A stretch of DNA of 64,000 nucleotides, taken from positions 29,128 through 93,127 of the forward strand of contig CALRKZ020000001.1 in assembly GCA_943368365.1 (NCBI GenBank), written 5' to 3'. This stretch comes from Mesorhizobium carmichaelinearum (GTDB lineage Bacteria > Cyanobacteriota > Cyanobacteriia > PCC-6307 > Cyanobiaceae). How positions within the stretch are numbered: position 1 is the stretch's first letter; each line of letters starts with the position of its first letter. The notes below the pieces were generated by a model. That model searched no databases. It was given only the letters and a program-made list of their open reading frames with translations, and had not been told where the DNA came from. The translations under genes were made by a program, and so were the position numbers. Shown piece after piece: positions 31,701-56,717 of the stretch.

Positions 31701-31766
31701 CAGCTCAATTGGGGCTACATGTAAGCAATCAATGAGCCACCTTTCAAGCACTACGATCTTGTCTGA

Positions 31767-32303: not shown

Positions 32304-32415
32304 ACACTGATCTCAGATCCGGTCACTGACCTCTGGATTTAAAGCACACCATGAGAGGTGACCAATCGGGATCGATCTGCCCTAAATTAAGTGCGCAGCA
32401 AGCTAATGAAAGCTC

Positions 32416-33153: not shown

Positions 33154-33613
33154 CACACATTCCAAAGACGCTGAAGAAGGATTCATTATATCCAGCCTAT
33201 ACAATCCCTAAGGCGCCATTGACCTACCCCCCCCTCCCTTTGTTTAGGTGCAGCATGCAAGTTATCACATTAATCCATTGATTCAGATGGCGTGCCTAGC
33301 ATTAAGGAGGCTGTCATTACTCCAGCCCGTCTGCTGGGTAGCAGGCTAGCCTTCTCTGATGGGTAGTGCGAAGACAGCAGGAATGTAGAGGCTTTCACTT
33401 TTCATGCATCTGTCCCGTTCAATGAGGTTGGTGGACAGCGTCAATCTTGTTGACTGGTGGCATGCTCCTGTTTTGCCCTATCGTGACTAGGCCGTCGAGT
33501 GACGTCAATGAAGTTTGCTTTCTGGCGACCATCTCAAGGCTGGTGAACCAGTTTCGTGTCGCAGCCGGGCTTCTAGCGAGGTGGACTGGAGCTGGCCTCG
33601 ATCATCACGTCCT

Positions 33614-34627: not shown

Positions 34628-34631
34628 CTAG

Positions 34632-35826: not shown

Positions 35827-35870
35827 CTAGACTTGTTATCATTAATGACACGTCCTTAAATGAGAACTCA

Positions 35871-36602
35871 ATGAAATTAGCTCCTCCGACTCCTTTACTT
35901 GTCATTAACCTAGAGAAGAGTGTTGATCGCAGGGCAAGAATGGAGGAGCAACTGTCGCGCCATGAGAATTTTAACTGGAGTTTTGTAAAAGCTGTAGACG
36001 GCAGGCTTTTACCTGATTCTGCAGCGTTCTCTCTTTGCGAGAATACTCACTGGAGCAAGACATCAAAAGGAACTATTGGGTGCTTCCTCAGTCATGTCAA
36101 GTGCTGGGAGCTTGTAAGAAACTCGGGAGCACCATATTCAATCATTCTTGAAGATGATTCGGTTCTTCTCGCGCTTGACCAATTGTACACTCTTGACATT
36201 CCCGAGGACACTGACATTCTTTATATCAATGAAAGAATGTCTCTCCCGATAACTGATTCACACCATACGTGCTATCCCGTTACGCGAGGCATCATCGGTC
36301 ACAGTCAACAATCTCGTTTCTGGGGTCCCGGCACAGACGGCTATCTGCTGGCAGCCGACGGGGCCGCAAAACTGTTACGCGCAATACAGGTCGATAAGTT
36401 TTATGGAAATACAGATGGCAGAGTACTGCGATACTGCACTAATGAAGCGGATGCCAAGAACCTTCCTGAAGGGTCAAAGATCAAACGTATCATTCTTGAA
36501 AATCACAGTAGATCGCCCGTTCCACAAATGAATCTGCTGAATGGTTATGTCGTTTCGCCTCCCCTGGTTCAAGCCGGGGGCTTTCCAAGCGTAAGAGAAT
36601 AG
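35871..36602 (+). CDS. Glycosyltransferase family 25 (divergent paralog of 32416..33153)
   Basis: LLVINLEKSVDRRARMEEQL and GTIGCFLSHVKCWELVRNSGAPYSIILEDDS form the GT25 core. ATG at 35871 lies inside ORF 35766..36602. Confidence 0.7.
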   Translation: MKLAPPTPLLVINLEKSVDRRARMEEQLSRHENFNWSFVKAVDGRLLPDSAAFSLCENTHWSKTSKGTIGCFLSHVKCWELVRNSGAPYSIILEDDSVLLALDQLYTLDIPEDTDILYINERMSLPITDSHHTCYPVTRGIIGHSQQSRFWGPGTDGYLLAADGAAKLLRAIQVDKFYGNTDGRVLRYCTNEADAKNLPEGSKIKRIILENHSRSPVPQMNLLNGYVVSPPLVQAGGFPSVRE

Positions 36603-36799
36603 GTGCGCCTAAGCCCCCGATAAAGCCAGGATTTCTTGAGTGACACAATTAGATCGGACTCAATTAATGCATTTTCAACAATAATCGGCTGAGATGACAG
36701 CCTCCTTCTTCATTTTTTACATGCATTGCACCATGGGCGACAACAAGCTTTTCACTTGAGAATTTCTTTCTCCTATTCCACGAACTGGCCTCTGACTGA

Positions 36800-37035
36800 T
36801 CGGTGATCAGCAAGACCCATTGCGGGAGAACTGCGCAGCCGAGCTGAGCGGATGCACGTCCGGCAAGAGCGGATCTGACCTCTGTTCTTCTAGGACTCCA
36901 CCGACGAGTGGATCCACAAGGCCCATCCTCTGCCGCAGGTCAGACGGCTAGCGGATCGGGACCTCAATCGGCAGCACCCCAGGTGGCCGCCCCTCACTCC
37001 CCAGAGCAGCAACTGGCAGTCCTTTTCTACAGCGG
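36800..37035 (+). repeat. Solo degenerate left end of the same IS5-family element
   Basis: gcgggagaa...ctgagcgg...ctccaccgacgagtggatccacaaggcccatcctctgccgcaggtcagacggctagcggatc aligns to 34655..34900 of the full IS, with an internal deletion. Same orientation. Confidence 0.65.
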
Positions 37036-37701
37036 AAGGCGTGTCCGCCTCCCCATCTGCCTTGAACCAATTCAGGCTAAACAGAGCTCGACGTGACCAG
37101 CTTGTAATGCAATGCCCATAGACGGGGATGGTTTCCTATCCTGGCTTGCAACCTGCTAGTTGTAACGGTGCTGGGAGTTAAGTGCCGTTATCTAAGGAGA
37201 GAAACTAGGTTCGTGTAGCTGTTAATGGTTGCTTGCCGAGCCATGCCACCTGCAGCAGCCTATCTACACGATCCAGCCTGCTCTGTATAGTGCTCCAAGC
37301 TGAGAAAAGGGAGAGAGGTCGATGTTTTTTACTTCGAATACCCTCCTGCAGCCCATGGAAGACACAGCTACCCAACTCGCAAAACCCTAAAGAATAAAGC
37401 TCTTCTCCGAGGCATGCGAGCACTACGAGCGCCTCAATGCTGCCAGCAGTGCGGCGGTTTCTGGATGAGCAGCAGAACATTGATCCCTTCCGCATGGTCT
37501 ATGGCGGAAATGACCGGAAAATCCCGCCCAGGGAATACATGGCAGACAAGCGAGGAGTTCCCCGCACGCTCAGTGGCCGTGAGGGACACCTCAACCCCGG
37601 CAGGATGGAGATGATAGCTATATCCACTAGCATTTTCCTTGTTCTATCGGCGGGCGATCAAAATTCATAGACATCAAAGGCACTGAGGAGCAGACTAAGT
37701 T

Positions 37702-38796
37702 TCACCACTTAGCGATTCTGCCATAGAGGCTTGGTGGATTGAGATTTGGAAGTAGATCCCCACGTTCATCAAGCTGCCCAAGTTTAGGATAGGTTCCAAT
37801 GAACGGATGTGGTGTATTGTCTCCCAGAATAATAGCCACAGAGGCGCTGCCATGGTCAGTGCCTCGTGAATCATTCTCGCGCAGCCTCCGACCGAACTCG
37901 CTGGTGGCCAGCAGCGTGACCTGGGGGCGAGCAGACATCAGCCCGAGGCCCCTCTCGAAGCTGGCCAGTGCGCCAGCCAGATCCGAAAGCACATGCTGAT
38001 GGCGTGTCGCCTGGCCGGCATGGGTGTCATAGCCGCCCTGCGACATCTGAATCACCGGGGGGGCGGCTCCCGATCCAATCAGCTGCAACGCCAGCGACAC
38101 CTGCTGACCGAGCCCACCACGAGGAATCGCCACCCCTTGCGGCAGCGGACGCAGGGCTCGCCTCAGCCGGATCAATTCCCTCCGGCTGTCCGCCTCCAGT
38201 TCGAGGATCCGCCGCAGCAGTGGGTGGTTGCCGGCCTCGGCAGGATCGAGCCCTTCCGACAGACGACCCTGCAACAGTGCCGGGGCCATCTGCAATGACA
38301 CGGCATGCCCCCCCTCCAGGGCCAGCGAACCGGATGGACCCAAGGCCACCAGCGGACCTCTCGACCCGCGGCGGTCGATGGCGGCAGCCAGCCAACCCGG
38401 GCCTGATCCGGTGAGCGAGCCGGTGGCCCACTGGTCGCTGGCCTTGAAATGGCTGCGGTTCGGCTGGGGCCAGCCCACCCCGAGAGCAAAGGCCAGCCGC
38501 CGGGCCTTCCAGATCGGATGCAGGGCAGCCAGGGCCGGATGAAGGATCAGATCCCGACCCAGAGCCGGCCCGTCATCCACCGCCAGGCTCGGGCGGGCCT
38601 GGCGGTAGAGCGGATCTCGGAACGGAATCACGGTGTTGAGGCCATCGTTCCCACCCCGCAGTTCCAGCAGAACCAGCACCCTGTCGCGCTTCGTGCCGGC
38701 ATTCGCGCTCCGCTGGAGCTCAGCCATCCATGCCGACAGGGCCAGACTGGCCGCCAGCGCTTCAGCACTGCGCTGCAGGAAGCCACGACGGTTCAT
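37702..38796 (-). CDS. DUF1501 domain protein with Tat-type signal
   Basis: MNRRGFLQRSAEALAASLAL is a twin-arginine signal. Also present are LELRGGNDGLN, GGYDTHAGQ and TSEFGRRLRENDSRGTDHG. ATGA overlap with the upstream DUF1800 gene. Confidence 0.85.
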   Translation of the reverse strand: MNRRGFLQRSAEALAASLALSAWMAELQRSANAGTKRDRVLVLLELRGGNDGLNTVIPFRDPLYRQARPSLAVDDGPALGRDLILHPALAALHPIWKARRLAFALGVGWPQPNRSHFKASDQWATGSLTGSGPGWLAAAIDRRGSRGPLVALGPSGSLALEGGHAVSLQMAPALLQGRLSEGLDPAEAGNHPLLRRILELEADSRRELIRLRRALRPLPQGVAIPRGGLGQQVSLALQLIGSGAAPPVIQMSQGGYDTHAGQATRHQHVLSDLAGALASFERGLGLMSARPQVTLLATSEFGRRLRENDSRGTDHGSASVAIILGDNTPHPFIGTYPKLGQLDERGDLLPNLNPPSLYGRIAKW

Positions 38797-39995
38797 GTGA
38801 ACTGCCATGCGGGATCGGAGAACAGCCGACCCATGGCCTCCCTCGACGCGGGGATGGGCAACGTCAGCGTCAGTGGCGGGATGGCGGTCAGGCCGGGTTC
38901 GAGAATCCGGGGCAAGCGATGGGAAGCCCACACCTCCTCATCCGCCAGCAGGGCCTGCAGGCCACGTACCCGGGCATGCAGCCAGCGCAGCTTGATCCAC
39001 TCGTCGTTCACTGGCCATCCCTTCACGGATGGTGGATCGAAGGGCTCCTGGCCCATGCGGCCGAGGTGCTCCCGGGCAATCTGAACGGCATCCGGATGGC
39101 GAGTGCCCAGCAACCTCAGGCTGCGCGCCATCATCGTCAACGGATCATCGAGACGCTGGCCCCTGCCGGCCGCCACGGCTGCCCGCCGCAGTTCAGCCAT
39201 CAGCCATGGCAGGGAAAGCCCCTGCTGGCGCCAGCGCTGCGCAACGGACTCAAGCCGTGCCGGAGACGGCAAAGCCCCCACCAGCCTTGGCCAGAGACGA
39301 CGCACCAGGTTCATGGCTGTGGAAGGTTGTTCGCAGAGCCAGGCAACCAGCAGCGGCCCATCGAAACGATCCTGCCGGCCCAGAATCACCTTCGGGCCCG
39401 CATCATGACGACCGGAATCGATGAACAACGTGCCATCGGGCGCCCGACGGTAACCCGTGAGAGCCCTGGCCGCTTCGCTCACATCGCGCTCGCCATAGCG
39501 CCCCTCTCCGATGGAGAACAACTCGAGCAGCTCACGGGCGAGGTTCTCATTCGGGTTGGCTCGATGGCTCTCAAGGCCGTTCAGCGAGATCTGCAGCGCG
39601 GGGTCATTCACCATCGCCTGCAGCAGATCGGTATAGGTGCCCCGCAGGTTGTCGCGGATGGCCGCGATCTGATCGTCCAGCACCCGAACGTCCACCAGCT
39701 GGCGCCATGACACGGGAAAGAGCCCCAGCCAGAGCTGCACCAGCTGGTCTTCGGTGCGGGACTCAGCAAAAGCCAACCGCTCCAGCCAGCGAACCTGCAG
39801 GGCATGGGCCTCGGGGATCTTGCACTCGAATGGCCGTTTCGGCGTCCCGATCGGAGGGCATCCGCTCATCGCCAGCACACCGGGAACACGCCTACTGAAG
39901 CTCGCTTCCATCCCCCTGACGACGACACGGCACCGGAGCATCCATGACTGAATGTGCCCAGCCGTGTTGGCGGCTGCTGCATCATTGATGACCAA
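38793..39995 (-). CDS. DUF1800 domain protein
   Basis: RELLELFSIGEGRYGERDVSEAARALTGY and GRHDAGPKVILG are typical of DUF1800. It is paired with DUF1501, as is usual. The start is uncertain. Confidence 0.75.
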   Translation of the reverse strand: MVINDAAAANTAGHIQSWMLRCRVVVRGMEASFSRRVPGVLAMSGCPPIGTPKRPFECKIPEAHALQVRWLERLAFAESRTEDQLVQLWLGLFPVSWRQLVDVRVLDDQIAAIRDNLRGTYTDLLQAMVNDPALQISLNGLESHRANPNENLARELLELFSIGEGRYGERDVSEAARALTGYRRAPDGTLFIDSGRHDAGPKVILGRQDRFDGPLLVAWLCEQPSTAMNLVRRLWPRLVGALPSPARLESVAQRWRQQGLSLPWLMAELRRAAVAAGRGQRLDDPLTMMARSLRLLGTRHPDAVQIAREHLGRMGQEPFDPPSVKGWPVNDEWIKLRWLHARVRGLQALLADEEVWASHRLPRILEPGLTAIPPLTLTLPIPASREAMGRLFSDPAWQFT

Positions 39996-40385
39996 TAAAC
40001 CATGCCCTCACGAGGCGGCCACGCGGCGAACAGACAGCAGTAGAAGGCAGAACCCCGCTGGGATAACCGCCGCGCTGGCCACAGGCAAGCGATCCGAGGA
40101 CGATCATCGGCGGACAGTCGCGCTCTAAGCCAAGTCTCAGATTCGTCGATTAACGCCTCCATAACCTAGATTTTCACGAACTTCGCTCGAGTTTTTGACT
40201 CATGCCCCTCAGTCATCACTCAGTCACATTCTTGTGACCAGTTGCATTCAGCTGCGTCCAATGAATCCGCACGCCGGATCCACACTGGCTCATTGTTTCC
40301 TAGATGCTGACGAAAAGCCATCATCAACGTGAGCCCAAGTCGAGGTCCAGTTCAAGAACTTTCCCGATCAACACTTCACGAGAGG

Positions 40386-40943
40386 ATGAGACAAGTCATT
40401 TACGTTTGTGGAGCTTCTGGGTCCGGCAAGACAAGTCTTGCTCTTCAGTTTTCAGACGTTGCCTATGTGATTCATACCGATCATTTGGCCTTGGTGGCTG
40501 CCATGCGCCTATGCCCATTCTGCAAGCCAGGCTCAGCGGGCGATTGGGACTTATGGAAAACGCTGTTGACACACACCAGCGCGATTGAAGCCTTGCATGC
40601 CTCCTTCCTTCAGTCCTATCCTGATTGCCTGTCTTCACCAAGACCTGTGATCATTGAAGGCACAATCTTGGTTTGGGATCAATGGAGAGATGCTTTGCGA
40701 ACCGGCCTAATGATGGCGGGCCTCAAGATCATCAAGGAAACCCTCCTATGGCTAGCCCCTCCTCCCGGCAAGGTATACACGAATATACAACAAAGAGGCA
40801 TCAACAACGAACATGCCAAGACATTAGCCCAAGTCGAAGAGTCCTGCCAAGTCTATTCCGCCCTTGCTCACAATCCAAACATTGAGAGGTGCGACAGCTA
40901 TTTTCATGCTGAAGGTAGAATTCAAAGCTTAGTCAACGCCTAA
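40386..40943 (+). CDS. P-loop NTPase / kinase-like protein
   Basis: Walker A motif VCGASGSGKTSL five residues after the ATG at 40386. AT-rich. No closer family recognised. Confidence 0.5.
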   Translation: MRQVIYVCGASGSGKTSLALQFSDVAYVIHTDHLALVAAMRLCPFCKPGSAGDWDLWKTLLTHTSAIEALHASFLQSYPDCLSSPRPVIIEGTILVWDQWRDALRTGLMMAGLKIIKETLLWLAPPPGKVYTNIQQRGINNEHAKTLAQVEESCQVYSALAHNPNIERCDSYFHAEGRIQSLVNA

Positions 40944-41319
40944 GATCACAGCGCCAGCCCGCAAGACGCGAAACGCACTCCAGCACAAGCGCAACAGACG
41001 AAATGATCGTCGTAAATGCTCAATAGAATACCAGGACCGGATTACTCGGTGCTGCATTGCAAGGCTGGACCAAGCCGTCGATCCTGGCCTCTCAGGTCCC
41101 GTGATGAATCGCTCCGCTATTGATTAATGCTGATTCATTGAGAAGGTATCATCAAAGCGGGCACCGCAGCGATGCCGCGCTCTCTACTCAGCTTGAGCTA
41201 TGCAGATTGCGTCTAACCCATAAAGCTCTAAGCCGCGGCTCACCGGATTCAAGAATGGCTCTTTCCGGAATGCAAGTTTCACACCTTACCTTTCATCCGG
41301 GCATGGCCAGTGAGACTGG

Positions 41320-42393
41320 ATGGGAGATCAACATCTGCTGGCCCGCGCCGGCGGAGTTCTTGTCAAACCACGGCCGGGCAGAATTGGCTGGGCATCCTTC
41401 GTCGACAGCAATATGGTCTTTCGGCAGCGGCCGAGATATCTCAAAGCCATGTTCCAGGATCTCTGTCTGCGCAGAATTGGGCCTACGCGTCTGTTGCGAA
41501 CCGGGAAGGGACCGTCCGTGATGCTTGACCCGGGAGGTTCGCCCGTTCTGGCTCATTCTCTTGTCATCGAGCTCAGTCGCAACGCGGAGAAAGCCAAGGC
41601 CCATGTTCGTCAGCTGGCGGACGATGCGCTAAAGGAATCGCCGGAGCCTGAGTTCAGAGTTGAAGGATCTGTCTATTCAGCATGCAATGAAGGGGCAGCC
41701 ACCTGGGGGCATTGGATTGGACATAATCTTCCCCGAGCGATGCTCTTTCTCGAGCACGTTCCTGATGGGCGCATCATTGTGCCTGAAGCTTATATGGCCA
41801 AGGCATCATCATTTCTGGATCTGATGGCTCGAGCAGGCATCGAATCATCCAAGATCGTTGCAGCACCTCACCGCTGCTCCATGCTCCTCGATGACTGCGC
41901 GTTGATTGATCTGCCCTACCACGAAGGGGTTTTCCATCCCATTCTTGCCGAAAAAATACGGCATCTGCAGCCAGCAGCAACCCATGGCAACAATCAACGC
42001 CACTTTGTACCACGAAATTCGTCCGATCGCTCCATCAGCAACGCAGACGACATCGACAGAGTTCATGCTCAGTACAATGTCAGCAAGGCCGCGATTGATG
42101 TGACCAGCCTGGCCAGCCAGGTTGCAGCCTGGTCCAGCTGCAGCACGATGATCGGCATCCTGGGAAGCGATCTGAGCAACATGGCCATCGGCAGACCGGA
42201 GTCAGTCTGCTCGATCACGCCACACTGGTTTGGCGATATCTTCTTCTATGGATTGGCAGCCATTCTTGATGTTGAATGGAATGAATACTATTGCGGCACC
42301 AAGGTTGCGCTTCGGGAGCCTGTTCATCGATCAACGTTCATGGTGAATGCCAATGATTACGGCGCTTTTCTCAAGTGGTGTCTGGGAAATTGA
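41320..42393 (+). CDS. Glycosyltransferase family 61-like (DUF563) protein
   Basis: ATWGHWIGHNLPRAMLF (HW...lpR motif) and RHFVPRNSSDRSISNADDI...LASQVAAWSSCSTMIGILGSDLSNM match the GT61/DUF563 layout. The start is uncertain. Confidence 0.5.
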   Translation: MGDQHLLARAGGVLVKPRPGRIGWASFVDSNMVFRQRPRYLKAMFQDLCLRRIGPTRLLRTGKGPSVMLDPGGSPVLAHSLVIELSRNAEKAKAHVRQLADDALKESPEPEFRVEGSVYSACNEGAATWGHWIGHNLPRAMLFLEHVPDGRIIVPEAYMAKASSFLDLMARAGIESSKIVAAPHRCSMLLDDCALIDLPYHEGVFHPILAEKIRHLQPAATHGNNQRHFVPRNSSDRSISNADDIDRVHAQYNVSKAAIDVTSLASQVAAWSSCSTMIGILGSDLSNMAIGRPESVCSITPHWFGDIFFYGLAAILDVEWNEYYCGTKVALREPVHRSTFMVNANDYGAFLKWCLGN

Positions 42394-42491
42394 TGAGGCG
42401 AGCTGTCTGGGGCGTCACTTCTTCGAGCCCGAGTCGCCTGCCCGCATCTCGCAGCTAAGGTTCGTCCTGCTGGGCGCTGCCAAGGCAGGAC

Positions 42492-45086
42492 GTGTTCTCC
42501 CCTCACCTGCGCAACGAACTCCACAACGCCCTGGACCTCCAGCGCCAGGGACGCCTTGACGCCTGCCTCAACCAACTCAGCGCGATCGCCGAGCATCATC
42601 CAGCTCTGATCGGCATCGCAGTGGCCAGGCTTCAGAGTCTTCGTTCACTCGGTAGGGCCAACGAGGCGGACGCCACCCTCGCCGCGCTCCAGCAGCGCCA
42701 TCCAGGTTCCTTCGAGGTCTCTCTGGTGCTGGCGGATGCCCGCCGAAGGGCCGGGCATTTCACTGAAGCCGCCGCGCTCTGCAGGGGCGTTCTCGAGCAG
42801 GTGCCCGATCACCTGGGTGCCCGCATCGCCCTCGACGCATTGCCGCCGGGTTCGCTTGAAGCCTCTTCGGATCCGCTGGGTCAACTGGATCCGCTGGATG
42901 CACTGATCGAGGCTGGCGAACGGGCCTATGCCAACAACCTGTTCAAGGCTGCCCTGGATCAGTTCCGCCAGGCTGCGGCGATCGCGCCCGATCACCTCGA
43001 TCTCCAGGTGGCCATGGCGCGTTGCTTCCGCCAGTTGTGGGATCTCGAGGCCGCCGCCGCGCTGCTCCATGGCGCGCTGGAGCGCGATGGGTCGTTGTTC
43101 TCGGCCATTCTCGGCATGGCGGAACTCCATGCCTGGAAAGGCGAACACGAGCAGGCCGTTCCCTGGTACCGGAGGGCGCATGAAGCCCAACCCGCCAACC
43201 CGGCGCTGTTCGCGGCTCTGATCGGCACCTTGCGCCAGGCCCAGCGCCATGGGGAGGCCAGCGAGCTGATGGCCGCTCAACTCGAAAAGCATCCAGGCGA
43301 TTCTGGGCTGCTCGCGGCCAAGGTGGAACTCGACAGCGCCTCCGGACGCGATGCCGAGGCCCTGGCAGCCTCGATGCAGCTGATGGGCCTCCCTGAGCCC
43401 ACCATGGCCCAACAACTCCTGCACGCCTCGCTGCTGCAGCGCAATGGCCAGGGTGAAGAAGCGCTGGCCTGGCTGGAGTCCCTGCCCAGCAACGGCGACA
43501 AAACCTGTGAAGCTCGCCTCTGGCAGGCCCGTGGCCAGCTGCACTGGGAAGCCGGCCGCCTCACGGAAGCCGTGGAGGCGCTCCTTCAGGCGGTGAACAG
43601 CAATCCCACGGAGCCGGAGCACGCCGTGGTGCTCGGGAATCTGCTGGCCGATCTGGCGGCACTGGAGGAAGGTCTGGATGTGCTCGCCAACTCCGAGCGG
43701 CTGATCGCCTTGGAGCAGGGATTGAGAACCCAGCCGTGGATCCAGTTCATCAAGGTGCGCTTCTTCCGTGCGGCCGGCGAGATGGAGGCGGCCCTGGCGA
43801 TCGCGGAAGGCCTCTGCAACGACCCCGGCGTGGGGTTTGCCGCCCGCTTGCAACGGTTCGAACTGCTCTGCCTCTCCGCAGATGAACGGGCGGAGCTGGC
43901 ACTCGAAGGCCTTGACCCCATCGAGCCAGCCCAGAAGCGTCTGGCCCTGTTCGCTCGTTGCGACTGGCTTTCGAGCCACTATCGCTTCGATGAAGCACTC
44001 AAGACTCTCCTGCCCCTGCTTGAAGCGGAATCCCTCGATCTGGTGGCCGCCGAACGGGCCTGCCTGCTGCAGACCCTGGTGATGGACATCGAGGCGGCCC
44101 AGGACCTCTTCTTCCAACTCCGCCGCGCCAAGCAATCGAGCGGCAATCCCCGCCTAGCGGAAACTGCATGGCATGGCCTGCACCGCTGCCTGATCGAGGA
44201 GTTCCACACCAATCAGTTCGCCCTTGCGCGGATCCGCGCCCTGGCAGCCGAGCTGCCTGATCAGCGCCTTCGCCGGCTGGCGACGCTGTTGGCCGAGGAA
44301 CCCTCCTGCTCGGCAGCCGCGCTGAGCCTGCTCATCGCCGCGCGGCAAGCCGGCCGGCTGTCGTCGTGGAGCACTGCGCCGGTGGCCGCCGATGGTGGTG
44401 AGCGCATCCCCCATCGCGTCTTCCAGTACTGGGACACCACGACCGTTCCGAACGGCGTGCGCTCCCTGATGCAGAGCTGGCCACAAGCGAACCCCTCCTT
44501 CGAACATCAGGTCCTTGACCGCGCTGCAGCCGCCGCCTTTCTGGCCGAACACACGCCACCGCTGGTGCAGAAGGCTTTCGCCGCGGCGATTAGCCCCGTG
44601 CTGCAGTCCCATCTCTTCCGCTACGCCTGGCTCCTCCACCACGGTGGCCTCTATGCCGACGCCGACACCCGCTGCCGGCAGTCCCTATCGAACCTCATGA
44701 ACCAGGGAGTCAACCTCCTGTTGCACCAGGAGGAGCACGGCGCGATCGGCAACACCCTGATCGCCGCTGTTCCTGGCCATCCCTTCCTGGCGGAAGTCCT
44801 GGAAACGGCCGCACGCCTGGTGCTGGAGGAACAGGCCAGCAACCCCTGGTTTCTGAGCGGATGCGGGGTGCTGACCCAGGTGTTCACCAGGCACTACGGG
44901 CACCTCATCGCTGATCCCCAGGCACTACAGCCTGCAGGGATGCGGCTGCTGACCAGCTACCAGCTCAGCCGTCACGTGAGCCTCCACCTCAAGGCACCGG
45001 TGCGCGTGAGCGAGGCGGGCTGGTCGTCGCCGCTGGGGGCCGAGAAAGCAGCAAAACGGCTGGTTCAGGTGCGGCGCTCGGGCTGA
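42492..45086 (+). CDS. TPR-repeat protein fused to a GT32-type (DXD sugar-binding) glycosyltransferase domain
   Basis: About 600 aa of TPR-like repeats. They are followed by [18 protein letters not shown]...[23 protein letters not shown], which fits the Gly_transf_sug pattern with DAD as the DXD motif. Confidence 0.75.
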
Positions 45087-48123: not shown

Positions 48124-48693
48124 ATGCAGATCGTTCCCCAGTCCATTCCCGAGGTGCTGCTGCTGCAGCCGAAGGTGTTCGGCGACGCCCGCGGCTTCTT
48201 CGTGGAAACCGCGCGCCAGAGCGTGCTGGAGGAGGCCGGTATCCCGCCGCTGGTGCAGCACAACCAGAGCCGCTCCGGCCAGGGGGTGCTGCGCGGCCTC
48301 CACTACCAGCTGGTGCAGCCCCAGGGCAAACTGGTGCGCTGCTCCAGGGGCAGCGTCTTCGATGTGGCCGTGGATGTGCGCCGCGGCTCAGCCACGTTCG
48401 GCCAGTGGGTGGGCGCCATCCTCGATGACGTGAACCACCACCAGCTCTGGGTGCCACCGGGCTTTGCCCACGGCTTCCTGGTGCTCTCGGAAACGGCCGA
48501 CTTCTGCTACCTCTGCTCGAACTACTACCACCCCCCCTCCGAGCAGGGGATCGCCTGGGATGATCCCGAGCTGGGGATCCAGTGGCCCCCCCTGCCGGAG
48601 GGGGTGACGCCCCAGCTCTCCACCAAGGACCTGGCCAACCCCACCCTTGCCAACCAGGAACCTCAGCGGCTGCCGACCATCTCAGCCTCCTGA
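48124..48693 (+). CDS. rfbC: dTDP-4-dehydrorhamnose 3,5-epimerase
   Basis: VFGDARGFFVE, VLRGLHYQ, KLVRCSRGSVFDVAVDVRRGSATFGQW and PPGFAHGF. Confidence 0.93.
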   Translation: MQIVPQSIPEVLLLQPKVFGDARGFFVETARQSVLEEAGIPPLVQHNQSRSGQGVLRGLHYQLVQPQGKLVRCSRGSVFDVAVDVRRGSATFGQWVGAILDDVNHHQLWVPPGFAHGFLVLSETADFCYLCSNYYHPPSEQGIAWDDPELGIQWPPLPEGVTPQLSTKDLANPTLANQEPQRLPTISAS

Positions 48694-49625
48694 ACGGCCG
48701 CCCTGCGCATGAGCGCTTCGAGGGCCGTGCGCAGGGGAGAAGGCAGCTGGCGACGGAATTTGATCCTCGGCAGCGCCATCTCGGCCATCACCGGCTCGCT
48801 GCCGTATAGCTGGAGATAATCGGCATGGTTGTCCCATACCTGCCTGGGCACGTTGTCGACGAACGATTCAACCGGCAGCCCCTCAGCCCAAAGGATCGTG
48901 TGGGAGTTCAGTTCGATGTTGTAGTAAACCAGGCACGGTTGATCGATCCACTCTTCGAGTTTGGTGTAGGTGATCGTGCGTCCATTCACCAGCGCCGAGG
49001 CCTGCACCAGATGCCCCTCGAACAGCACGGCATGGTCGGGGCTGAGCATCAGATCACGTTCGGGCAAACGCTGGCCAAGGGCACCGGCCGTGATCCGGAT
49101 CGGCAGCCCACCAGACCAGCTCAGCGGCATGGGGTGGTGCCGGGTGATTGACACGAACCGCACGCTCTCGATCCCATTGGCCGTGATCACCCGTTCACCA
49201 GGCTTGAGGGATTCGATCGGGCGTGGCCCTTCAGGGGTGGCGATCAGAGTTCCCGCCAGCATGCAGATGGTGAGATCTTGCTCCAGGAGTCGGCCTAAAA
49301 CAGTATCTTTCTTAAACTCTGTATTGCTAGCAAGAAAGAACTTATCATCTATCTCAAGAACAATCGCACCACTAGAAGGGAAGAATCCCACATATTCCAG
49401 TTTCGATTTGTCATCGAGATCAAATGGCAAGTCATCATCATCATTCAACTTCGGAAGTGAAATCCTAACATCTTCATCGACTGTAAATATTTTGTCTTCT
49501 CCCTTTTTCCTTTCCGTAATACGAACTGATTCGGATTTTGTAATGTCTTGACTGGCGACTTGGTAAACCTCTGATTTGGGATCATACTTCAACAGATAGA
49601 AATAGTCGTAAGTAGCGGTGGCCAT
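48663..49625 (-). CDS. Hint_2 / bacterial intein-like domain protein, copy A (intact)
   Basis: A 120 aa AT-rich N-terminal module comes first. It is followed by CMLAGTLIATPEGPRPIESLKPGERV..., AGALGQRLPERDLMLSPDHAVLF and HTILWAEGLPVESF. The 3' end overlaps rfbC by 31 nt. Confidence 0.8.
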   Translation of the reverse strand: MATATYDYFYLLKYDPKSEVYQVASQDITKSESVRITERKKGEDKIFTVDEDVRISLPKLNDDDDLPFDLDDKSKLEYVGFFPSSGAIVLEIDDKFFLASNTEFKKDTVLGRLLEQDLTICMLAGTLIATPEGPRPIESLKPGERVITANGIESVRFVSITRHHPMPLSWSGGLPIRITAGALGQRLPERDLMLSPDHAVLFEGHLVQASALVNGRTITYTKLEEWIDQPCLVYYNIELNSHTILWAEGLPVESFVDNVPRQVWDNHADYLQLYGSEPVMAEMALPRIKFRRQLPSPLRTALEALMRRAAVQEAEMVGSR

Positions 49626-49760: not shown

Positions 49761-49800
49761 AAAGACACAAGAAAGCCCAGACCCTCGTAAAGAGTCTGGG
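49761..49800 (-). terminator. Rho-independent terminator-like hairpin after Hint copy B
   Basis: The minus strand reads cccagac-tctttacgagg-gtctggg followed by ctttcttgtgtctttt. It lies 30 nt downstream of the stop at 49830. Confidence 0.45.
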
Positions 49801-49829: not shown

Positions 49830-50746
49830 TCACCTGAGCGCCAGCTCACGCTCACGGCTGGTCTGCTGAGGGATCTGAAGAACCAGCCGAAGAGCGGCAG
49901 GCAACTGCCGGCTGAACTTGATGCGAGGGAGGGCAAGATCCTGGATCGGTAGATGAGCACCGCAAAGGGAAAGATACTCCTCGTAGTTGTCCCAAGTGGA
50001 TCGGGGCACATTGTCGGCAAACGTCTCAACCTCAAGCCCCTCGGCCTTGATGATGGAATGCGCCTCCAACTCGATGTTGTAATTCACGATCCTCTGATCC
50101 TTGGGCTACTCTTCGAGCTGAGATCGCTGGATGGTGGATCCGTTGATCAGCGTAGAAGCATGGACGAGATGACCATCGATCACGATGGCATGGTCACCGG
50201 AAACGAGGAGATCGCGCTCAGGCCCAGCGGCGCCCAGGGCACCACCGAAATCCGAACGGGCAGGCGATCCCCCAGGGCCAGCATGAAGGGGAGGTGAACG
50301 GTCTGGCTGACGAAGTGCACCGGCAGGGCCCCGGCCTGGGTGATCACTAGATCCCCCACAGCCAGAGTTTCGTCGGGCCGTGAGCCCTCGGGAGTGGCAA
50401 TCCGTGTGCCAGCAAGGAAACAAACTTCGATATGAGTTCTGCTGGTTGTTCCCGATAGGTCATTTTGGAGAGTTGTATCATCGGATAGCAGGTAGTAGGT
50501 GCCAGGAGGACACTCAACAACAATCCCTTGAGCACTGGCACCGTCATACTGAATGGCGCCGGAAAGTTGCCCGGTTACCGTAAGAGACTCTCCTGGAGTT
50601 GCTATTTCGGGAGAGCTGACATCCCCCGATTCGATGATGGTGGTAGGTTTGTCGCGATTAGCCCTGTCAAAGACCTGCCAAGTGTTAGTAGAGGTGTTGC
50701 AAGTTATATCGTTAGTTCCGCCGTAGGCATCCGAAAGGGCGGCCAT
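49830..50746 (-). pseudogene. Hint_2 domain gene, copy B (one frameshift, one in-frame TAG)
   Basis: The N-terminal module plus EVCFLAGTRIATPEG is in one frame. GALGAAGPERDLLVSGDHAIVIDGHLVHAS is in another, with the shift near 50247..50251. TAG at 50106..50108 sits where copy D has Trp. Downstream comes NYNIELEAHSIIKAEGLEVETF. Confidence 0.75.
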
Positions 50747-51027
50747 GAGAAGGATGGGCGCTTGTGGATGAGGAAGCATGAGGAAATTATAAGTAATGAT
50801 TGAGCAATCACTCGAAAACCGAATTCGGGGCTAGCTGAATCGAGAAAGATGACAAAATGCCGACGCTAAAATCCGTTCTCTCAGCTCTTTTGTTCATGAG
50901 GATGAAAGCAAGTTGACTGGAAAGCAGGCGTCGCCAAACTTCCCTGCGACTGCAAGGCGAGGTCAGCTGGGTCTCTGCACCCAGCAAGGAAAACCTCACC
51001 TTGTGGCTGGCCTGCCTCACTCATCCA

Positions 51028-51164
51028 CCTCCCGATGCCGCCTCTCACCCTCTGTGTGCTTCCGGGGCTCGAGGAGCAGCCTGGCGGCATCACGGCATTG
51101 CTGCGGCTGAACCTGCCCCTGCTGCTCACCGGGGAGTGAGTTGTGGGCCCGGAACTGGCGGCGG
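51028..51164 (+). repeat. Duplicated 5' fragment of the gene at 55557
   Basis: atgccgcctctcaccctctgtgtgcttccggggctcgaggagcag... aligns to 55551..55686. I count about 11 mismatches by hand. It contains a premature TGA. Confidence 0.85.
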
Positions 51165-51256
51165 GGGTGACGCCCCCGCTCTCCGCCAAAGACCTGGCCA
51201 ATCCCACCCTCGCCAACCAGTAGCCTCAACGGCTGCCCACCATGTCCGCCTCCTGA
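51165..51256 (+). repeat. Duplicated 3' fragment of rfbC
   Basis: ggggtgacgcccccgctctccgccaaagacctggccaatcccaccctcgccaaccag... aligns to 48601..48693, including the TGA. It contains an in-frame TAG. Confidence 0.85.
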
Positions 51257-52186
51257 ACGGCCGCCCCTCGCACAAGCGATTCGAGGGCCGTGCGCAGGGC
51301 AGAAGGCAACTGACAACGGAACTTGATCCTCGGCAGCGCCATCTCGGCCATCACGGTCTCGCTGCCATAGAGCTGGAGATACTCCGCATGGTTGTCCCAC
51401 ACCTGCCTCGTCACGTTGTCGACGAACGATTCAATGGGCAGACCCTCGGCACAGAGGATCCCGTGGGAGTTCAGTTCGATGTTGTAGTAAACCAGGCAGG
51501 TTTGATCGATCCACTCCTCGAGTTCGGTAGAGATGATCGTGCGTCCATTCACCAGCGCCGAAGCCGGCACAAGATACCCCTTGAACAGCACGGCATGGTC
51601 GGGGCTGAGCAGCAGATCCCGTTCGGGCAACCTCTGGCCAAGGGCACCGGCCATATCCGGATGGGCAGCCCGTTCGACCAGCTCAGCGGCAAGGGATGAT
51701 GCCGCGTGATCGACACGAACCTCACGCTCTCGATCCCGTTGGCCGTGATCACCCGGTCACCAGGCTTGAGTGATTCGATCGGGCGGGGGCCTTCCGGGGT
51801 GGCGATTCGGGTTCCCGTCAGCAGGCAGATGGTGAGGTTCTCTTGCTTGGGGCTGCCGAGATTGGTGCCCTGACTGTAGTGAGTGTTGTTGGCGAGATAG
51901 AAATTCCCACCCCTCTTCAGAACGATCGCTCCTGTAGCCGAATAAAACCCTTCATACACATAGTTGGTCTTGCCGTCGAGGTCACTGGGCAATCCATCAC
52001 CACACTCCGGCCTTGAATCAACCCTGACATGCTCATCAGCCGGATACCTGACAAATGTTTTGTCATTGGTCGACTCTGTGATCAGAACCGAATCGGACTT
52101 GGACTCATTTTGACTATCAACCTGATAGGATCCAGGATTACGCTCATCCTTCAGGCGATAAAAAAGGCGTAGGTGGCGTCAGACAT
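51226..52186 (-). pseudogene. Hint_2 domain gene, copy C (two frameshifts)
   Basis: The start reads MSDATYAFF, then the frame is lost at a six-base homopolymer run (52160..52165). Restoring one base gives FYRLKDERNPGSYQVDSQ..., parallel to copy A. A second shift lies near 51650. The Hint part is ICLLTGTRIATPEGPRPIESLKPGDRV...HGILCAEGLPIESF. Confidence 0.75.
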
Positions 52187-52380: not shown

Positions 52381-52417
52381 ACAACACAAAAGCCTTGCCC
52401 CATGAATGGGACAAGGC
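52381..52417 (-). terminator. Rho-independent terminator-like hairpin after Hint copy D
   Basis: The minus strand reads gccttgtccc-attcat-ggggcaaggc (one mismatch) followed by ttttgtgttgt. It lies 43 nt downstream of the stop at 52460. Confidence 0.5.
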
Positions 52418-52459
52418 CATGGAAGAAAGTGAGTTGGTTGCCTGAGCGGCACTCAGATG

Positions 52460-53380
52460 TCAGACAGTTGCCAATTCACGCTGGACAGCGGACTGATCCA
52501 TCGATTGGAGCTTAAGTCGGAGCGGGGCGGGAATCTGACGGGAGAACTTGATCCGGGGCAGAGGCAGTTCACGGATTGGCGCCTCACTTCCATAGAGCGC
52601 CAGATACTCTTCGTAGTTGTCCCAGGTTTTCCGGGGCACGTTGTCGACATACGACTCCACCTCGAGACCTTCGGCGCGAATGATGGCGTGCTCCTCAAGC
52701 TCCACGTTGTAGTAGGTGATGGAGGGGGTGTCTTGCCAATCTTCTGCTGAGGTGCGAACGATGGTCGTGCCGTTGATCAGCGCTGAAGCGTGGATGAGAT
52801 GACCATCCACCACGATGGCGTGATCGCCGGTAACGAACAGGTCACGCTCGGGGCCCGCCTGCCCGAAAGCACCAGCGCTGATGCGAATCGGGAGAGCGCC
52901 CGAGAGGCTCAGCACCAAGGGATGACTCACGGTTTGCGAGATGAATCGTACGGGCCGGAGGCCGTCCAAGCATCGAATCATCTGACCAGGCTGGAGGGCC
53001 TCAACCTCGATGGGACCCTCAACGGTACCGATCAACGTGCCAGCAAGGAAGCAAACAAATGTGCCTTGGCTAGCATTGGTGCTGAAGTTGACCTCAGTCC
53101 CTGCGGGAATGGCAGTATTTGAAGCTACATAGAAAGTAGATCCGGATTGAAAAATGAGAGCATTACCACTACTTTTTCCGAGATAGATCACTGAGACTGC
53201 CGTGCCTCCGTTGATGCTAAGCGTCACAGCCTCGCCCGGGGCCAGCGATGAATTGGAGCTGGTTGTCTCGGTGACAACAGCATTGCCACCACCGGACAGA
53301 TCGGGGCCACTTGTTGTCGTCTTGGTGCTAGTACCAGGAGCCGAAGAAAGATAGATGTTATTGAACCCGAAAGAAGCCAT
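52460..53380 (-). CDS. Hint_2 / bacterial intein-like domain protein, copy D (intact)
   Basis: A 109 aa Ser/Thr/Gly-rich N-terminal module comes first. It is followed by CFLAGTLIGTVEGPIEVEALQPGQMI, AGAFGQAGPERDLFVTGDHAIVV and HAIIRAEGLEVESY. Confidence 0.8.
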   Translation of the reverse strand: MASFGFNNIYLSSAPGTSTKTTTSGPDLSGGGNAVVTETTSSNSSLAPGEAVTLSINGGTAVSVIYLGKSSGNALIFQSGSTFYVASNTAIPAGTEVNFSTNASQGTFVCFLAGTLIGTVEGPIEVEALQPGQMIRCLDGLRPVRFISQTVSHPLVLSLSGALPIRISAGAFGQAGPERDLFVTGDHAIVVDGHLIHASALINGTTIVRTSAEDWQDTPSITYYNVELEEHAIIRAEGLEVESYVDNVPRKTWDNYEEYLALYGSEAPIRELPLPRIKFSRQIPAPLRLKLQSMDQSAVQRELATV

Positions 53381-54014: not shown

Positions 54015-54239
54015 TCACAGATCGCGGAACGCCGACTCATCCACCGGGCTGCTCCACTCGCTCAGGCCGCTCTCCAGCCCATGGAGATAGGCCAGATCCA
54101 ACGGCGTCTCCGCCCGCACTCGCTCCGAGCCGTCCTCCAGCTCCCAGCTGAGCTGGTCGCCCTGCATCAATCCCAGGGCCTCACGCACGGCCTTCGGCAC
54201 CGTGACCTGCCCCTTGGCAGTGAGTGTGGCGACGTCCAT
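54015..54239 (-). CDS. AbrB/MazE/SpoVT-family antitoxin-like DNA-binding protein
   Basis: MDVATLTAKGQVTVPKAVREALGLMQGDQLSWEL is the swapped-hairpin beta-barrel motif (kGQvTiPk.iR..lgl..Gd.l). Confidence 0.7.
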   Translation of the reverse strand: MDVATLTAKGQVTVPKAVREALGLMQGDQLSWELEDGSERVRAETPLDLAYLHGLESGLSEWSSPVDESAFRDL

Positions 54240-54334
54240 CCGTGGCCAACCCATCCGATCGCCACCCTAGAGCCAAGGCCGCCTTGCTTTAGGGCGTCCT
54301 TACGCGCTTGCCCCCCGCCGTTTCCACCCAGCTG

Positions 54335-54798: not shown

Positions 54799-55433
54799 AC
54801 CTGCCAGATTTCCCTCAGGCGGAGAACCAGCCCGGGGAACAGGGGCCCCGCCTCCAGCTCGGATGGGGCCTCCAGGCGTTGGGGGGTGCCGCTAGGGCTG
54901 CCGCCAGCGGGCCAGATCTCCACAGCCTGCTGTTCGGGGATCAACAGCCAGCCCAGTTGGACCCCATTGGCCTGGTAGGGGCCATCTTGCGGCGCAGGGC
55001 GGAGAGGCCGCGGGGGCCTTCGTCGCCGGCACTGGCCAGCTCCACCACCAGATCGGGGCAGAGCGGGGGAAAGCCGCGCCGCTGCTCGGCAGTGAGCGCC
55101 TGCCAGCGCTTCTGGCTCACCAGCGCGGTATCGAGGCTCAACACCGAACCATCGGGCAGGCGGAAGCCCGTGGAGCTGTCGAACAGCTGGTAGGGGAAGC
55201 CCGCTGGAGCGCACCGCGATCCAGAGCAGGGCGCCGAGGGTCTGGTTCCTGGCGCCGGTTTCACCACCGGTGGGCGTGATGTGGATGAGATGACCATCGG
55301 CGGAGAGTTCGAGCACCGCCTCGGGGTTCGCAGTGCACACCGCCGCGAATTGCTCGGTGCTGAGCCGCAGATCAGCGGGCAGGTGCAGAGGCGCCAGAGC
55401 ATCGGCCCGGGTGGCTGGAGATGCAGGCGCCAT
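54795..55433 (-). pseudogene. Uma2-family (DUF820) endonuclease, two frameshifts
   Basis: Three frame pieces read consecutively: LSTEQFAAVCTANPEAVLELSADGHLIHITPTGGETGARN, then YQLFDSSTGFRLPDGSVLSLDTALVSQKRW...PDLVVELAS, then ANGVQLGWLLIPEQQAVEIW. Confidence 0.75.
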
Positions 55434-55556
55434 GGCCCCAGCGAGCTTGGTTTTCAGGCTAGACGGCTTCCTGGTGCCCGCAGAACCGGCAGTCATCACG
55501 TGGCGAGTGCCTGGAAGGCAGCTACCACTACGGTCACCGTCGCCCGCAGCTCCTCC

Positions 55557-56717
55557 ATGCCCGCCCTCACCCTCTGTGTGCTTCCGGGGCTCGAGGAGCA
55601 GCCGGGCGGCATCCCGGACTTGCTGCGGCTGAACCTGCCCCTGCTGCTCTTCGGGGAGTGGGTGGTGGGCCCGGAACTGGCGGCGGCGCTCGTGCCCGAA
55701 CTGCGCACCACCGACGCCGACCGCCCCCGCCTCGACGACCTGCTGCGTCAGGCCACGGTGCGCACCAGCAGCGCCGCCCTCGTGCTGCTCAGCGGCGCCG
55801 TCGCACCCACGGCGGCCTGGGCCGACGGGGTGGGCGAACTGGCCCTGCGCGATCCGCCCGTGCTCGCCTGGGGCCGCGCCTGGAGCCGCAGCGGGCCCGA
55901 GGCCGGGCTCCGGCTGGATCCACCCGCCGAGCCCAGCTGGATCCTGCTGCCCCGTGGCGCCTGGACGCCGCCGCCCGCCCTGGCCGATGCCCTCGCTGCC
56001 GATCCGCCCGCCGCCCTCCCCTGGCTGCTGGAACTCGCCGCTGAACGCGGCTGGCCCGCGCTCGACGCCACCGAGGCGGTCCCGCTGGATCGGCGCGGGC
56101 CCCACCCCATCGCCACACCGCAGCCCGCTCCGGCGCCGGCGGGGCCGCAGGCCGGGATCCAGCGGTTGCCCATCACCCCGGCCGACGCGCCCCGCCTCAC
56201 CCTGCTGCTCCAGGGCTCCGGCGCCGATCAGCGGCGCTGGCGCGACGCGCTGGAGGGGTCCTCCGAGCTGGGCATCGAGCTGCTCCCCACCGAGGCGGGC
56301 GACTGGAGCCAGGCCAGGGGGGAGTGGATCGGCTGCCTGCCGGCGGCCGCCGACCCGCCACCCCTGGCGCTGCTCTCCGCCCTGGTGCGGACCTTCCGAA
56401 ATCCCTGGATCGATGGGGTGGTGCCGCAGGACTGGCCACCGGTGCTCCGCCGCGGCGTGCTGGAGCGGCTTGGCCCCGCCGCCTTCGAGGAGCCGGCGGC
56501 CCGGGCCGCCGGCCTGCAGCTGCTCCAGCTGCCGCTGCTGGCGGCCAGCCCCCCGGAGGAACCCGATCCCCTCTGGCAGGCGGCCGCCCTCCAGCTGGAG
56601 CGGGCCGAAGCCCTGCTGCTCGCCCAGCAGCGCCGCATCGCCCAGCTGGAAGCCCAGCTGGGCCAGTCGCGCCAGGGGCTCACACCACCGGAAACTTCCA
56701 GGCCAGCAGCCAGCTGA
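55557..56717 (+). CDS. Hypothetical Pro/Ala-rich protein (source gene of the 51028..51164 fragment)
   Basis: ATG at 55557 lies inside ORF 55281..56717. The duplicated copy begins at the same ATG, which supports this start. C-terminal coiled-coil-like LQLERAEALLLAQQRRIAQLEAQL. Confidence 0.5.
   Translation: MPALTLCVLPGLEEQPGGIPDLLRLNLPLLLFGEWVVGPELAAALVPELRTTDADRPRLDDLLRQATVRTSSAALVLLSGAVAPTAAWADGVGELALRDPPVLAWGRAWSRSGPEAGLRLDPPAEPSWILLPRGAWTPPPALADALAADPPAALPWLLELAAERGWPALDATEAVPLDRRGPHPIATPQPAPAPAGPQAGIQRLPITPADAPRLTLLLQGSGADQRRWRDALEGSSELGIELLPTEAGDWSQARGEWIGCLPAAADPPPLALLSALVRTFRNPWIDGVVPQDWPPVLRRGVLERLGPAAFEEPAARAAGLQLLQLPLLAASPPEEPDPLWQAAALQLERAEALLLAQQRRIAQLEAQLGQSRQGLTPPETSRPAAS

Follow-up and report, generated by a model that had tools for sequence, protein, structure and literature searches.

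Genes A and C, two paralogs in the 64,000-nt stretch of DNA analyzed here (the window), raise the question of why their similarity begins so abruptly inside the coding sequence. A preliminary description of this DNA had placed the onset close to the codon for a Cys residue at the start of a Hint domain and had offered three causes: cassette recombination at the Hint boundary, diversifying selection on the N-terminal part (the cargo), or gene conversion that homogenizes only the Hint part. The reading that we consider probable is that anciently diverged cargo cassettes were recombined onto a conserved Hint_2 module, within an island that is present in tandem.

The step between cargo and Hint part in genes A and C

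Four genes, A to D, lie between rmlC and a gene that we call X (Table 1). Each of them matched the Hint_2 family (PF13403, cut-off 28.4 bits), with scores of 112 bits for A, 99.6 bits for D, and 99.6 and 114.6 bits for B and C after repair of their reading frames. All four matches started at a Cys, approximately 110-120 residues into the protein; its codon was found at 49263-49265 in A and 51825-51827 in C, exactly where the preliminary description had placed it. No Hint genes other than A-D were found within the window. The 3' end of A overlaps the last 31 nt of rmlC. B is disrupted by a 1-nt deletion after the residues LPVRIS and by an in-frame TAG, and C by two 1-nt deletions. Programmed frameshifting was considered for B and C and rejected, since no convincing slippery site was seen except a run of six T residues in C. 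A terminator-like hairpin was detected directly downstream of B (49776-49800), and A and B are therefore probably transcribed as separate units. We detected no motif shared by the regions upstream of the four genes, Rfam and tRNA scans of the island found nothing, no NCBIfam model matched A or D, and gene X matched no Pfam family.

Table 1. Features of the island between rmlC and gene X (window positions).
Feature	Position	Strand	Remarks
rmlC (dTDP-4-dehydrorhamnose 3,5-epimerase), conserved left flank of island	48124..48693	+	Pfam PF00908, E = 2.4e-67
High-identity block, copy 1	48592..49274		rmlC tail and Hint part of A, with 9 nt ahead of the Cys codon
Gene A, intact	48663..49625	-	320 residues
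Gene A, constant part (Hint_2 from Cys121 plus C-terminal extension)	48663..49265	-	Pfam match to residues 120-257; GC3 0.775
Gene A, cargo	49266..49625	-	120 codons; low GC (0.40); GC3 0.40
Terminator-like hairpin directly 3' of gene B	49776..49800	-	consensus scan; 11-pair stem, T-rich tail; pattern match
Gene B, Hint_2 paralog, pseudogene	49830..50779	-	three-frame translation; Hint_2 E = 2.8e-28 (repaired)
X-head copy, non-functional	51026..51164	+	first ~42 codons of X and 13 upstream nt; TGA stop
rmlC 3'-tail copy, non-functional	51155..51225	+	62/71 identical to 48592-48662; TAG stop
High-identity block, copy 2	51155..51836		blastn match to 48592-49274
Gene C, paralog of A, pseudogene	51226..52186	-	Hint part 51226-51827, cargo 51828-52186; Hint_2 E = 6.5e-33 (repaired)
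Terminator-like hairpin directly 3' of gene D	52391..52418	-	consensus scan; 12-pair stem; pattern match
Gene D, intact Hint_2 paralog, B/D type	52460..53380	-	306 residues; Hint_2 E = 2.8e-28
Gene X, conserved right flank of island	55557..56717	+	386 residues; orthologs in Cyanobium/Synechococcus genomes

We compared A and C by blastn and obtained a single match of 683 nt (48592-49274 against 51155-51836) with one gap and 88.3% identity, close to the nine positions in ten estimated earlier by eye. As had also been noted, the block did not end at the stop codons; it ran 71 nt further into the copy of the rmlC tail. No match was obtained upstream of it, in agreement with the earlier view that this DNA is practically impossible to align. 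A sliding-window profile had been proposed as a check on whether the change is abrupt or gradual. With a 30-nt window, identity rose from ~0.5-0.6 upstream to 0.8-1.0 downstream of the boundary, and the change was located between positions 49297 and 49282 of A, i.e. within ~15 nt; the profile was thus step-like and not gradual. In a codon-guided alignment, position 49275 was the maximum chi-square change point. It lies 10 nt from the Cys codon on the upstream side, compared with the ~12 nt estimated earlier. Mismatches amounted to 40.1% to the left of this point versus 11.7% to the right (chi-square 103), and the statistic was equalled in none of 300 permutations. Within the Hint block the mismatches were evenly spread, at 9-15 per 100 nt, with no internal gradient. 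At third codon positions 59.5% of the sites differed in the cargo versus 21.5% in the Hint part. Both genes encode the tetrapeptide LTIC at the boundary, which falls between Ile and Cys. The Hint parts of the two proteins were 86.5% identical; the cargo parts, equal in length, were 47% identical (55/116), considerably more than the scattered identities described before. The step between A and C is real and statistically solid.

Substitutions were then counted for each part separately by the Nei-Gojobori method, a calculation that the preliminary description had recommended. The A/C cargo had a pS of 0.79, which is saturated, and a pN of 0.30, and the Hint part had a pS of 0.27, corresponding to a dS of 0.33, with a dN of 0.069. 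Base composition also changed at the boundary. GC3 was 0.40 in the cargo of A and 0.58 in that of C, 0.78-0.79 in their Hint parts and 0.90 in host genes. B and D had the same step between cargo and Hint part, and GC3 of the Hint parts overall was 0.69-0.79. Each Hint_2 gene of the window is a compositional chimera, and the cluster as a whole stands out as a low-GC island (0.37-0.65) against a genomic GC of ~0.70.

These values bear directly on the proposal that the genes were recently duplicated in tandem and that strong diversifying selection then acted on the cargo halves, the Hint halves being constrained, which we regard as highly improbable. It is true that the cargo evolves faster than the Hint part throughout the family (the cargo-to-Hint dN ratio was ~3 in A/B and in B/D), and that the cargos of A and C have remained homologous and of the same length. 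However, the silent sites of the cargo are saturated while pN is just 0.30, so that amino acid change is not in excess, and diversifying selection on a recent duplicate cannot yield the step. GC3 differs between the two cargos as well as between the cargos and the Hint part. Moreover, the Hint parts of B and D, which such an event would have duplicated as well, had a dS of 1.7, and nucleotide similarity between them was confined to 49972-50225 and 52602-52856 (73%). A pair of loci with almost identical flanks, L024 and L025, had a similar pattern (see below). The saturated cargo pS and the GC3 step, together with the occurrence of unrelated cargos on the same module, exclude diversifying selection alone.

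Two versions of the island between rmlC and gene X

The DNA between B and C contains a copy of the beginning of X and a copy of the end of rmlC, both of them non-functional. The X-head copy (51026-51164) matched 55547-55686 with 128 identities in 140 positions, and the 31-nt segment in which rmlC overlaps A was identical at 27 positions between its copies; together with the rmlC tail (Table 1), these counts agree with the mismatch numbers obtained by hand earlier. The two plus-strand fragments meet at a novel joint at which the X head, ending at 51164, passes into the rmlC tail, which begins at 51155 and leads on into C. Around 5-8 nt are common to both sides (microhomology GGCGG/GGGG). The joint connects the distal end of the repeated segment to its proximal end. 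The joint shows that the locus contains two versions of the rmlC-X island in tandem, one composed of rmlC tail, A, B and X head, and the other of rmlC tail, C, D, further DNA and X. The duplication assumed in the preliminary description was thus borne out as far as the X-head/rmlC-tail junction is concerned, and the additive integration of a foreign allele would fit the same junction equally well.

Homology-facilitated illegitimate recombination reportedly occurs in bacteria. The joint described here resembles those of this process, and those of tandem duplications, in its novel connection of a far to a near end, its microhomology of a few nt and the adjoining homologous anchor (gene X). It differs from the documented cases of illegitimate recombination in that the mechanism is read here from the junction sequence and not with the help of a donor genome. 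The tandem could have arisen in either of two ways: a tandem duplication whose interior was later replaced, or the addition of a divergent allele through one homologous and one illegitimate crossover.

The layout of flank, first allele, partial flanks, second allele and flank also resembles an unresolved bubble, as if the assembler had laid two strain variants of the island end to end. We hold such an artefact to be most improbable, because the overlap of ~5-8 nt at the joint is too short for an assembler, the TGA of the X head and the TAG of the rmlC tail are stops not to be expected in the functional genes of a second strain, and a divergence of 9-13% far exceeds that of strain variants that assemble together.

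A tandem of two island versions whose cargo cassettes were exchanged by recombination, the reading that we favor, implies parts of different age. The young parts of the island copies were the rmlC tail, the Hint parts of A and C and the X head, with a divergence of 9-13%, similar to that of the rml genes relative to their nearest relatives (12-18%). The A/C cargo, the intergenic DNA and B/D were saturated or unalignable between the copies. A and C would accordingly be counterparts whose Hint_2 modules and flank fragments share a fairly recent common ancestry (~9-13% divergence), and the cargo parts and the island interior would derive from much older lineages with saturated silent sites. Since the two parts are of different age, the step at the Cys codon was not produced by divergence in place. 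The best match to the Hint part was only 55% identical, so that any order of events proposed for the rmlC-X locus would be tentative. Similarity to the rmlC genes of relatives stopped at ~48659.

We examined the corresponding region in other Cyanobium/Synechococcus genomes and found that orthologs of X (46-58% identity) lie downstream of rmlABCD across a variable gap. In L016 and L018 the gap between rmlABCD and X was short and variable and contained toxin-antitoxin genes and no Hint genes. In L020 and L021, from two other MAGs, the rmlC-X gap contained a Hint_2 gene with an Ig-like cargo and a decayed extra copy of X. By these gap contents, the region between rmlC and X is a recurrent variable spot at which alleles have been stacked more than once.

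Recurrence of the step and exchange of cassettes and modules

A scan of species-representative genomes yielded 14 loci, mostly in freshwater Prochlorococcaceae/Cyanobium MAGs. The Cys codon was fixed as position 601 in every extracted gene, and an all-against-all comparison gave more than 15 pairs in which similarity set in at positions 590-601, with an identity of 87-94%; many pairs with the step have a history in common, so the independent events are fewer than the pairs. Just one pair, consisting of positional orthologs, could be aligned upstream of the Cys codon. Homology began at the TGC codon or at most 12 nt before it, and four genes encode NVVC at this point, with the boundary before the Cys. 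The GC3 step was also found in L003, L005, L006, L008a, L009 and L010. Cargos of 24, 56, 110, 143, 212, 255, 304, 408 and 2611 residues were found on Hint modules. The module type of L003-L007 carried cargos of 408, 2611, 255 and 56 residues, and one of 24 residues in the shorter ortholog L007, and the type of L008-L010 carried seemingly unrelated cargos of 110, 143, 304 and 212 residues. Pfam matches were obtained in a few cargos and comprised DUF6973, DUF4347 with FG-GAP repeats, and Ig-like domains.

Two sets of syntenic loci bear on recombination at the boundary. L008, L009 and L010 lie between the same glycosyltransferase and methyltransferase genes, and the identity of their flanks is 92-95% (92-94% for L009 and L010). 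Among them the cargo was replaced together with 0.3-1.5 kb of upstream DNA, and similarity returned at nt 10000-10001, which is the Cys codon. L024 and L025 are on almost identical contigs from separate sequencing runs, with 0-2% mismatches in the flanks. They differed in a hyperdivergent block of ~630 nt that extended from ~240 nt upstream of the start codon to the Cys codon. Here the cargo had a pS of 0.81 and a pN of 0.20, and the Hint part a pS of 0.09 and a pN of 0.002. This pair is direct evidence that recombination has replaced a cargo cassette whose downstream edge lies at the Hint boundary. Of the causes first offered, recombination at this boundary gains direct support from both sets of loci. 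The step is a property of the Hint_2 family and is present even at syntenic loci with near-identical flanks. A diversity-generating retroelement or a site-specific shufflon was considered as well and rejected, as neither repeats nor recombinase genes were found and entire unrelated cargos are swapped.

A metagenome search for the same module on other cargos had also been suggested, and a scan with the 5' Hint DNA pattern returned only two loci, both non-cyanobacterial, which left the sample no larger and instead revealed the strong conservation of this 5' segment. Members from outside the cyanobacteria shared 35-61 nt with the cyanobacterial ones at 87-100% identity, counted from the Cys codon on. 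Hint coding sequences were nearly invariant over their first 35-60 nt (CFLAGTLIATP...).

We also looked at the history of the Hint modules themselves. About half of the pairs of informative sites were incompatible among the five modules of group 1, and identical site patterns were clustered, with 14 adjacent matches versus 6.6 expected (p = 0.0026). Recombination tests had been called for at the outset; the test of adjacent site patterns was positive for group 1, and neither Hint group gave a significant result in a PHI-type test with a window of 20 sites. The clustering indicates a mosaic ancestry of the group-1 modules, including exchange between two paralogs of one genome. In L001, a tandem pair in another MAG, we found a tract of 535 nt with 92.7% identity that lay wholly inside the gene. 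It began 2 nt ahead of the Cys codon and stopped at the conserved LPRIKFARQLP block. Gene conversion that homogenizes the Hint part, as envisaged in the preliminary description, is supported by this intragenic tract and by the group-1 mosaicism.

Conversion of this kind could in principle have produced the A/C block as well, if A-D were an old tandem array and a recent event had copied the Hint part and the 3' flank between A and C. We consider this unlikely, even though exchange limited to the Hint part is known from L001 and from the mosaic group-1 modules and the upstream edge of the A/C block coincides with the start of paralog homology. The block passes the stop codon by 71 nt into the rmlC-tail copy and ends at the illegitimate junction. 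The X-head copy, which is neutral, is 91% identical to X at a distance of 4.5 kb and would be unrecognizable if it were as old as the cargo. To rescue an old junction, a second independent conversion of similar age would be required. The uniform distribution of mismatches across the A/C block also argues against the conversion of an old array.

The age of the A/C block itself may be composite. Silent divergence was 43/200 in the Hint part versus 21/211 in the duplicated flank fragments, a difference of about twofold (p = 0.0016). Hint modules were consistently ~2-fold more diverged at silent sites than the surrounding DNA at several loci. Candidate causes of this excess are exchange with paralogs, compositional disequilibrium, and partial hitch-hiking with old cargo alleles.

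Under recombination of old cargo cassettes onto a conserved module, which we continue to favor, the step would mark the border of a constant module, one that is freely recombined within the gene family. Homologous recombination and gene conversion would hold the Hint modules alike across alleles and paralogs, and the cargo, usually with its upstream DNA, would be a hypervariable cassette that is swapped as a block. The breakpoint would lie 0-12 nt before the Cys codon because the homology of the family starts there. The near-invariant 5' Hint block may serve as a recombination anchor, and a crossover in it would be visible as a boundary where the block begins. With repeated recombination, linked divergence would be worn down as far as the limit of the region in which diversity is kept, and cargo diversity may be maintained by balancing selection. 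For annotation, the warning is that identity profiles inside Hint_2-type genes would mirror recombination and not the age of a duplication.

Protein architecture, putative cleavage and comparison with known systems

We predicted the structure of A with AlphaFold2 (AF2; pLDDT 91). The model consists of an eight-strand beta cargo domain (pLDDT 87.5), a Hint fold and an extension of ~60 residues that closes in a long helix (residues 296-319). When the Hint part was searched with Foldseek, it matched BIL2, the gp41-1, DnaB and RecA inteins and the BIL of C. thermocellum with a probability of 1.0 and target-normalized TM-scores (TMt) of 0.55-0.70; the BIL structures matched by the predicted fold were 6Y75/6TMM and 2LWY. 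Cys121 and His198, the latter in an SPDH motif, were invariant in an alignment of 60 sequences, so that A has both the N-terminal nucleophile and the block-B (T/S)xxH histidine expected of the Hint superfamily. Asn258 was conserved just among the four paralogs of the window and not across the family. A C-terminal His-Asn motif and a C-extein were absent from A, which therefore does not have the makeup of an intein. On the predicted fold, the two invariant residues and the absence of these C-terminal elements, and by analogy with known Hint proteins, Hedgehog/BIL-like N-terminal cleavage is the likely chemistry of A-type proteins. The Hint part would cleave the cargo off between Ile120 and Cys121 by an N-to-S acyl shift.

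Searches with the cargo of A were mostly negative. Its predicted fold had no significant match in the PDB (best E = 0.22), a PDB sequence search with A returned no match, and phmmer against 1.84 billion representative proteins returned two weak matches to long repetitive proteins and no detectable homolog. Family members of ~300 residues have in common an N-terminal domain that evolves fast, and the cargo of A is an instance of it.

Reviews of the work of Amitai et al. (2003) and Dassa et al. (2004) place the bacterial intein-like (BIL) domains in the hypervariable parts of bacterial proteins that are not conserved (PMC5874633, PMC7765530). They may add to protein variability along with genetic rearrangements (PMC5874633, PMC7765530). 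The proteins described here resemble those with BIL types A and B, as the reviews describe them, in having a Hint fold within hypervariable, non-conserved proteins, and the location typical of B-type BIL domains was found here too, the same Hint module occurring on cargos of 24-2611 residues. They differ in that the Hint part is always C-terminal and is followed by the conserved extension of ~60 residues.

A second parallel is provided by Hog proteins, in which a C-terminal Hint domain that starts with Cys and carries an extra region of ~60-70 residues is combined with diverse N-termini, as in nematode warthog and groundhog and in protist proteins (PMC2362128). Their N-terminal domains are freed by an N-to-S acyl shift, and the occurrence of one Hog domain with differing N-termini is known (PMC2362128). 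The Hint_2 proteins are like Hedgehog and Hog proteins in their C-terminal, Cys-first Hint domain, their C-terminal extension and their diverse N-terminal domains. However, Hog proteins are eukaryotic, are secreted by means of a signal peptide and use cholesterol as the nucleophile, whereas A has no signal peptide and is similar at the level of the fold only. Unlike for the Hint_2 genes, no population-level exchange of cassettes has been described for Hog genes.

Polymorphic toxins such as CDI, Rhs and MafB have a constant N-terminal trafficking part, a HINT domain before a variable C-terminal toxin, and an immunity gene (PMC3482391). Shared with the Hint_2 genes are a border between constant and variable parts at a sharp motif, recombinational swapping, tandem or decayed copies, and a location in variable islands. 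The polarity is reversed, in that the variable part of the Hint_2 proteins is N-terminal and the Hint domain itself is constant. We found no immunity-like ORF beside A or C, and neither the 204 nt between A and B nor the 273 nt between C and D contained an ORF of more than 44 codons. At L024/L025 the varying DNA before the start codon extended over only ~240 nt, and a Pfam scan of the cargos identified no named toxin.

In the limited literature searched, we found no work on Hint_2 proteins in cyanobacteria or roseobacters. Within the same scope, no paper was found that describes a step in nucleotide similarity at the Cys codon, the replacement of cassettes between alleles at syntenic loci or synonymous saturation of the cargo.

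We tentatively put forward a further interpretation, which is possible although on balance doubtful: the Hint_2 proteins of picocyanobacteria and alphaproteobacteria could be polymorphic effectors of reversed polarity, with a portable C-terminal handle, a cargo diversity that is frequency-dependent and a 5' anchor for exchange. The constant C-terminal module might export the protein and then release the cargo, or ligate it elsewhere as Hedgehog does. Cargo alleles might be kept diverse by frequency-dependent selection, for example by phage, grazers or neighboring cells, and the near-invariant anchor of 35-60 nt would permit in-frame exchange of any cargo at the Cys codon. If the recombination of cassettes onto a constant module, which we favor, holds true, a widespread and unstudied family that is annotated just as 'Hint domain-containing protein' would gain an evolutionary logic of a constant self-cleaving module with interchangeable fronts. 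The front ends would act like old balanced alleles, as is typical of loci for interaction with phage, grazers or neighbors, and such loci are poorly understood in freshwater picocyanobacteria. The Hint_2 module would then be a natural modular self-cleaving tag.

Regarding export, A ends in the long helix described above, the proteins of the window contained no RTX repeats, and a Pfam scan of 10 neighboring ORFs detected no T1SS components; nothing seen in the window supports type I secretion. Some other family members do carry HemolysinCabind (RTX) repeats before Hint_2, which hints at type I secretion in these relatives.

Boundaries of the exchanged segment and of the island

We found that in L024 and L025, two near-identical contigs carrying Hint_2 loci, ~240 nt 5' of the start codon fall inside the hyperdivergent block (L024 640-1281), so that the promoter and 5' UTR move together with the cargo, the variable part upstream of the Hint Cys codon. 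At the left flank of the Hint_2 island in the window, the similarity of rmlC to its relatives ends at ~48659, so the island seems to have altered the final rmlC codons. The rmlC gene and gene A are convergent and overlap by 31 nt (48663-48693).

Hint_2 loci in other genomes

The same gap between rmlC and the right-flank gene X was found in two MAGs (L020 1089-2113; L021 4521-7234), where it holds a Hint_2 gene with Big_12/Big_13 cargo. Beside this gene lies a decayed copy of X with 59% amino-acid identity to the X of the window, together with a second, intact X of a different type (45%). L004 (2171-10639) encodes a 2822-residue protein ending in the Hint module that follows cargos of 56-408 residues elsewhere (91-93% nucleotide identity). 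In L010 (7976-9027 and 9365-10000), the variable segment contains IS630-like transposase ORFs and the cargo has long Asp-Pro / Thr-Asp repeats. Hint_2 genes were also present on contigs titled Chitinophaga pinensis or Sulfopaludibacter (L006, L009, L012 and L015). These bins are probably mislabelled; Prochlorococcaceae MAG contigs are syntenic with L006 and L009 at 90-97%.

Frameshifts and other features of the window

The pseudogenes B and C share a homologous LP[IV]RI motif, and each has a 1-nt deletion no more than two codons after it. This pattern could be a coincidence, a mutational hot spot or a sequencing error. At the T6 run of C (GCC TTT TTT ATC), the frame would be regained by a -1 slip. 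The terminator-like hairpins after B and D have no homology to one another, and judging from sequence they probably cause the two genes of each unit to be transcribed separately. A second and larger low-GC mosaic (28000-44000; GC 0.46-0.62 vs 0.70), located upstream of the rml operon, shows host-like GC3 in few ORFs and is probably a cell-envelope glycan island.

Deletions, hairpins and genes located in and around the Hint_2 island (window positions)
Feature	Position	Strand	Location
B, 1-nt deletion after LP[IV]RI	50240-50260		
C, 1-nt deletion after LP[IV]RI	51650-51665		
C, other deletion	52155-52170		T6 run
Terminator-like hairpin	49776-49800	-	after B
Terminator-like hairpin	52391-52418	-	after D
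MazE/AbrB-like antitoxin gene	54015-54254	-	between D and X
Uma2-family nuclease remnant, frameshifted	54941-55402	-	between D and X
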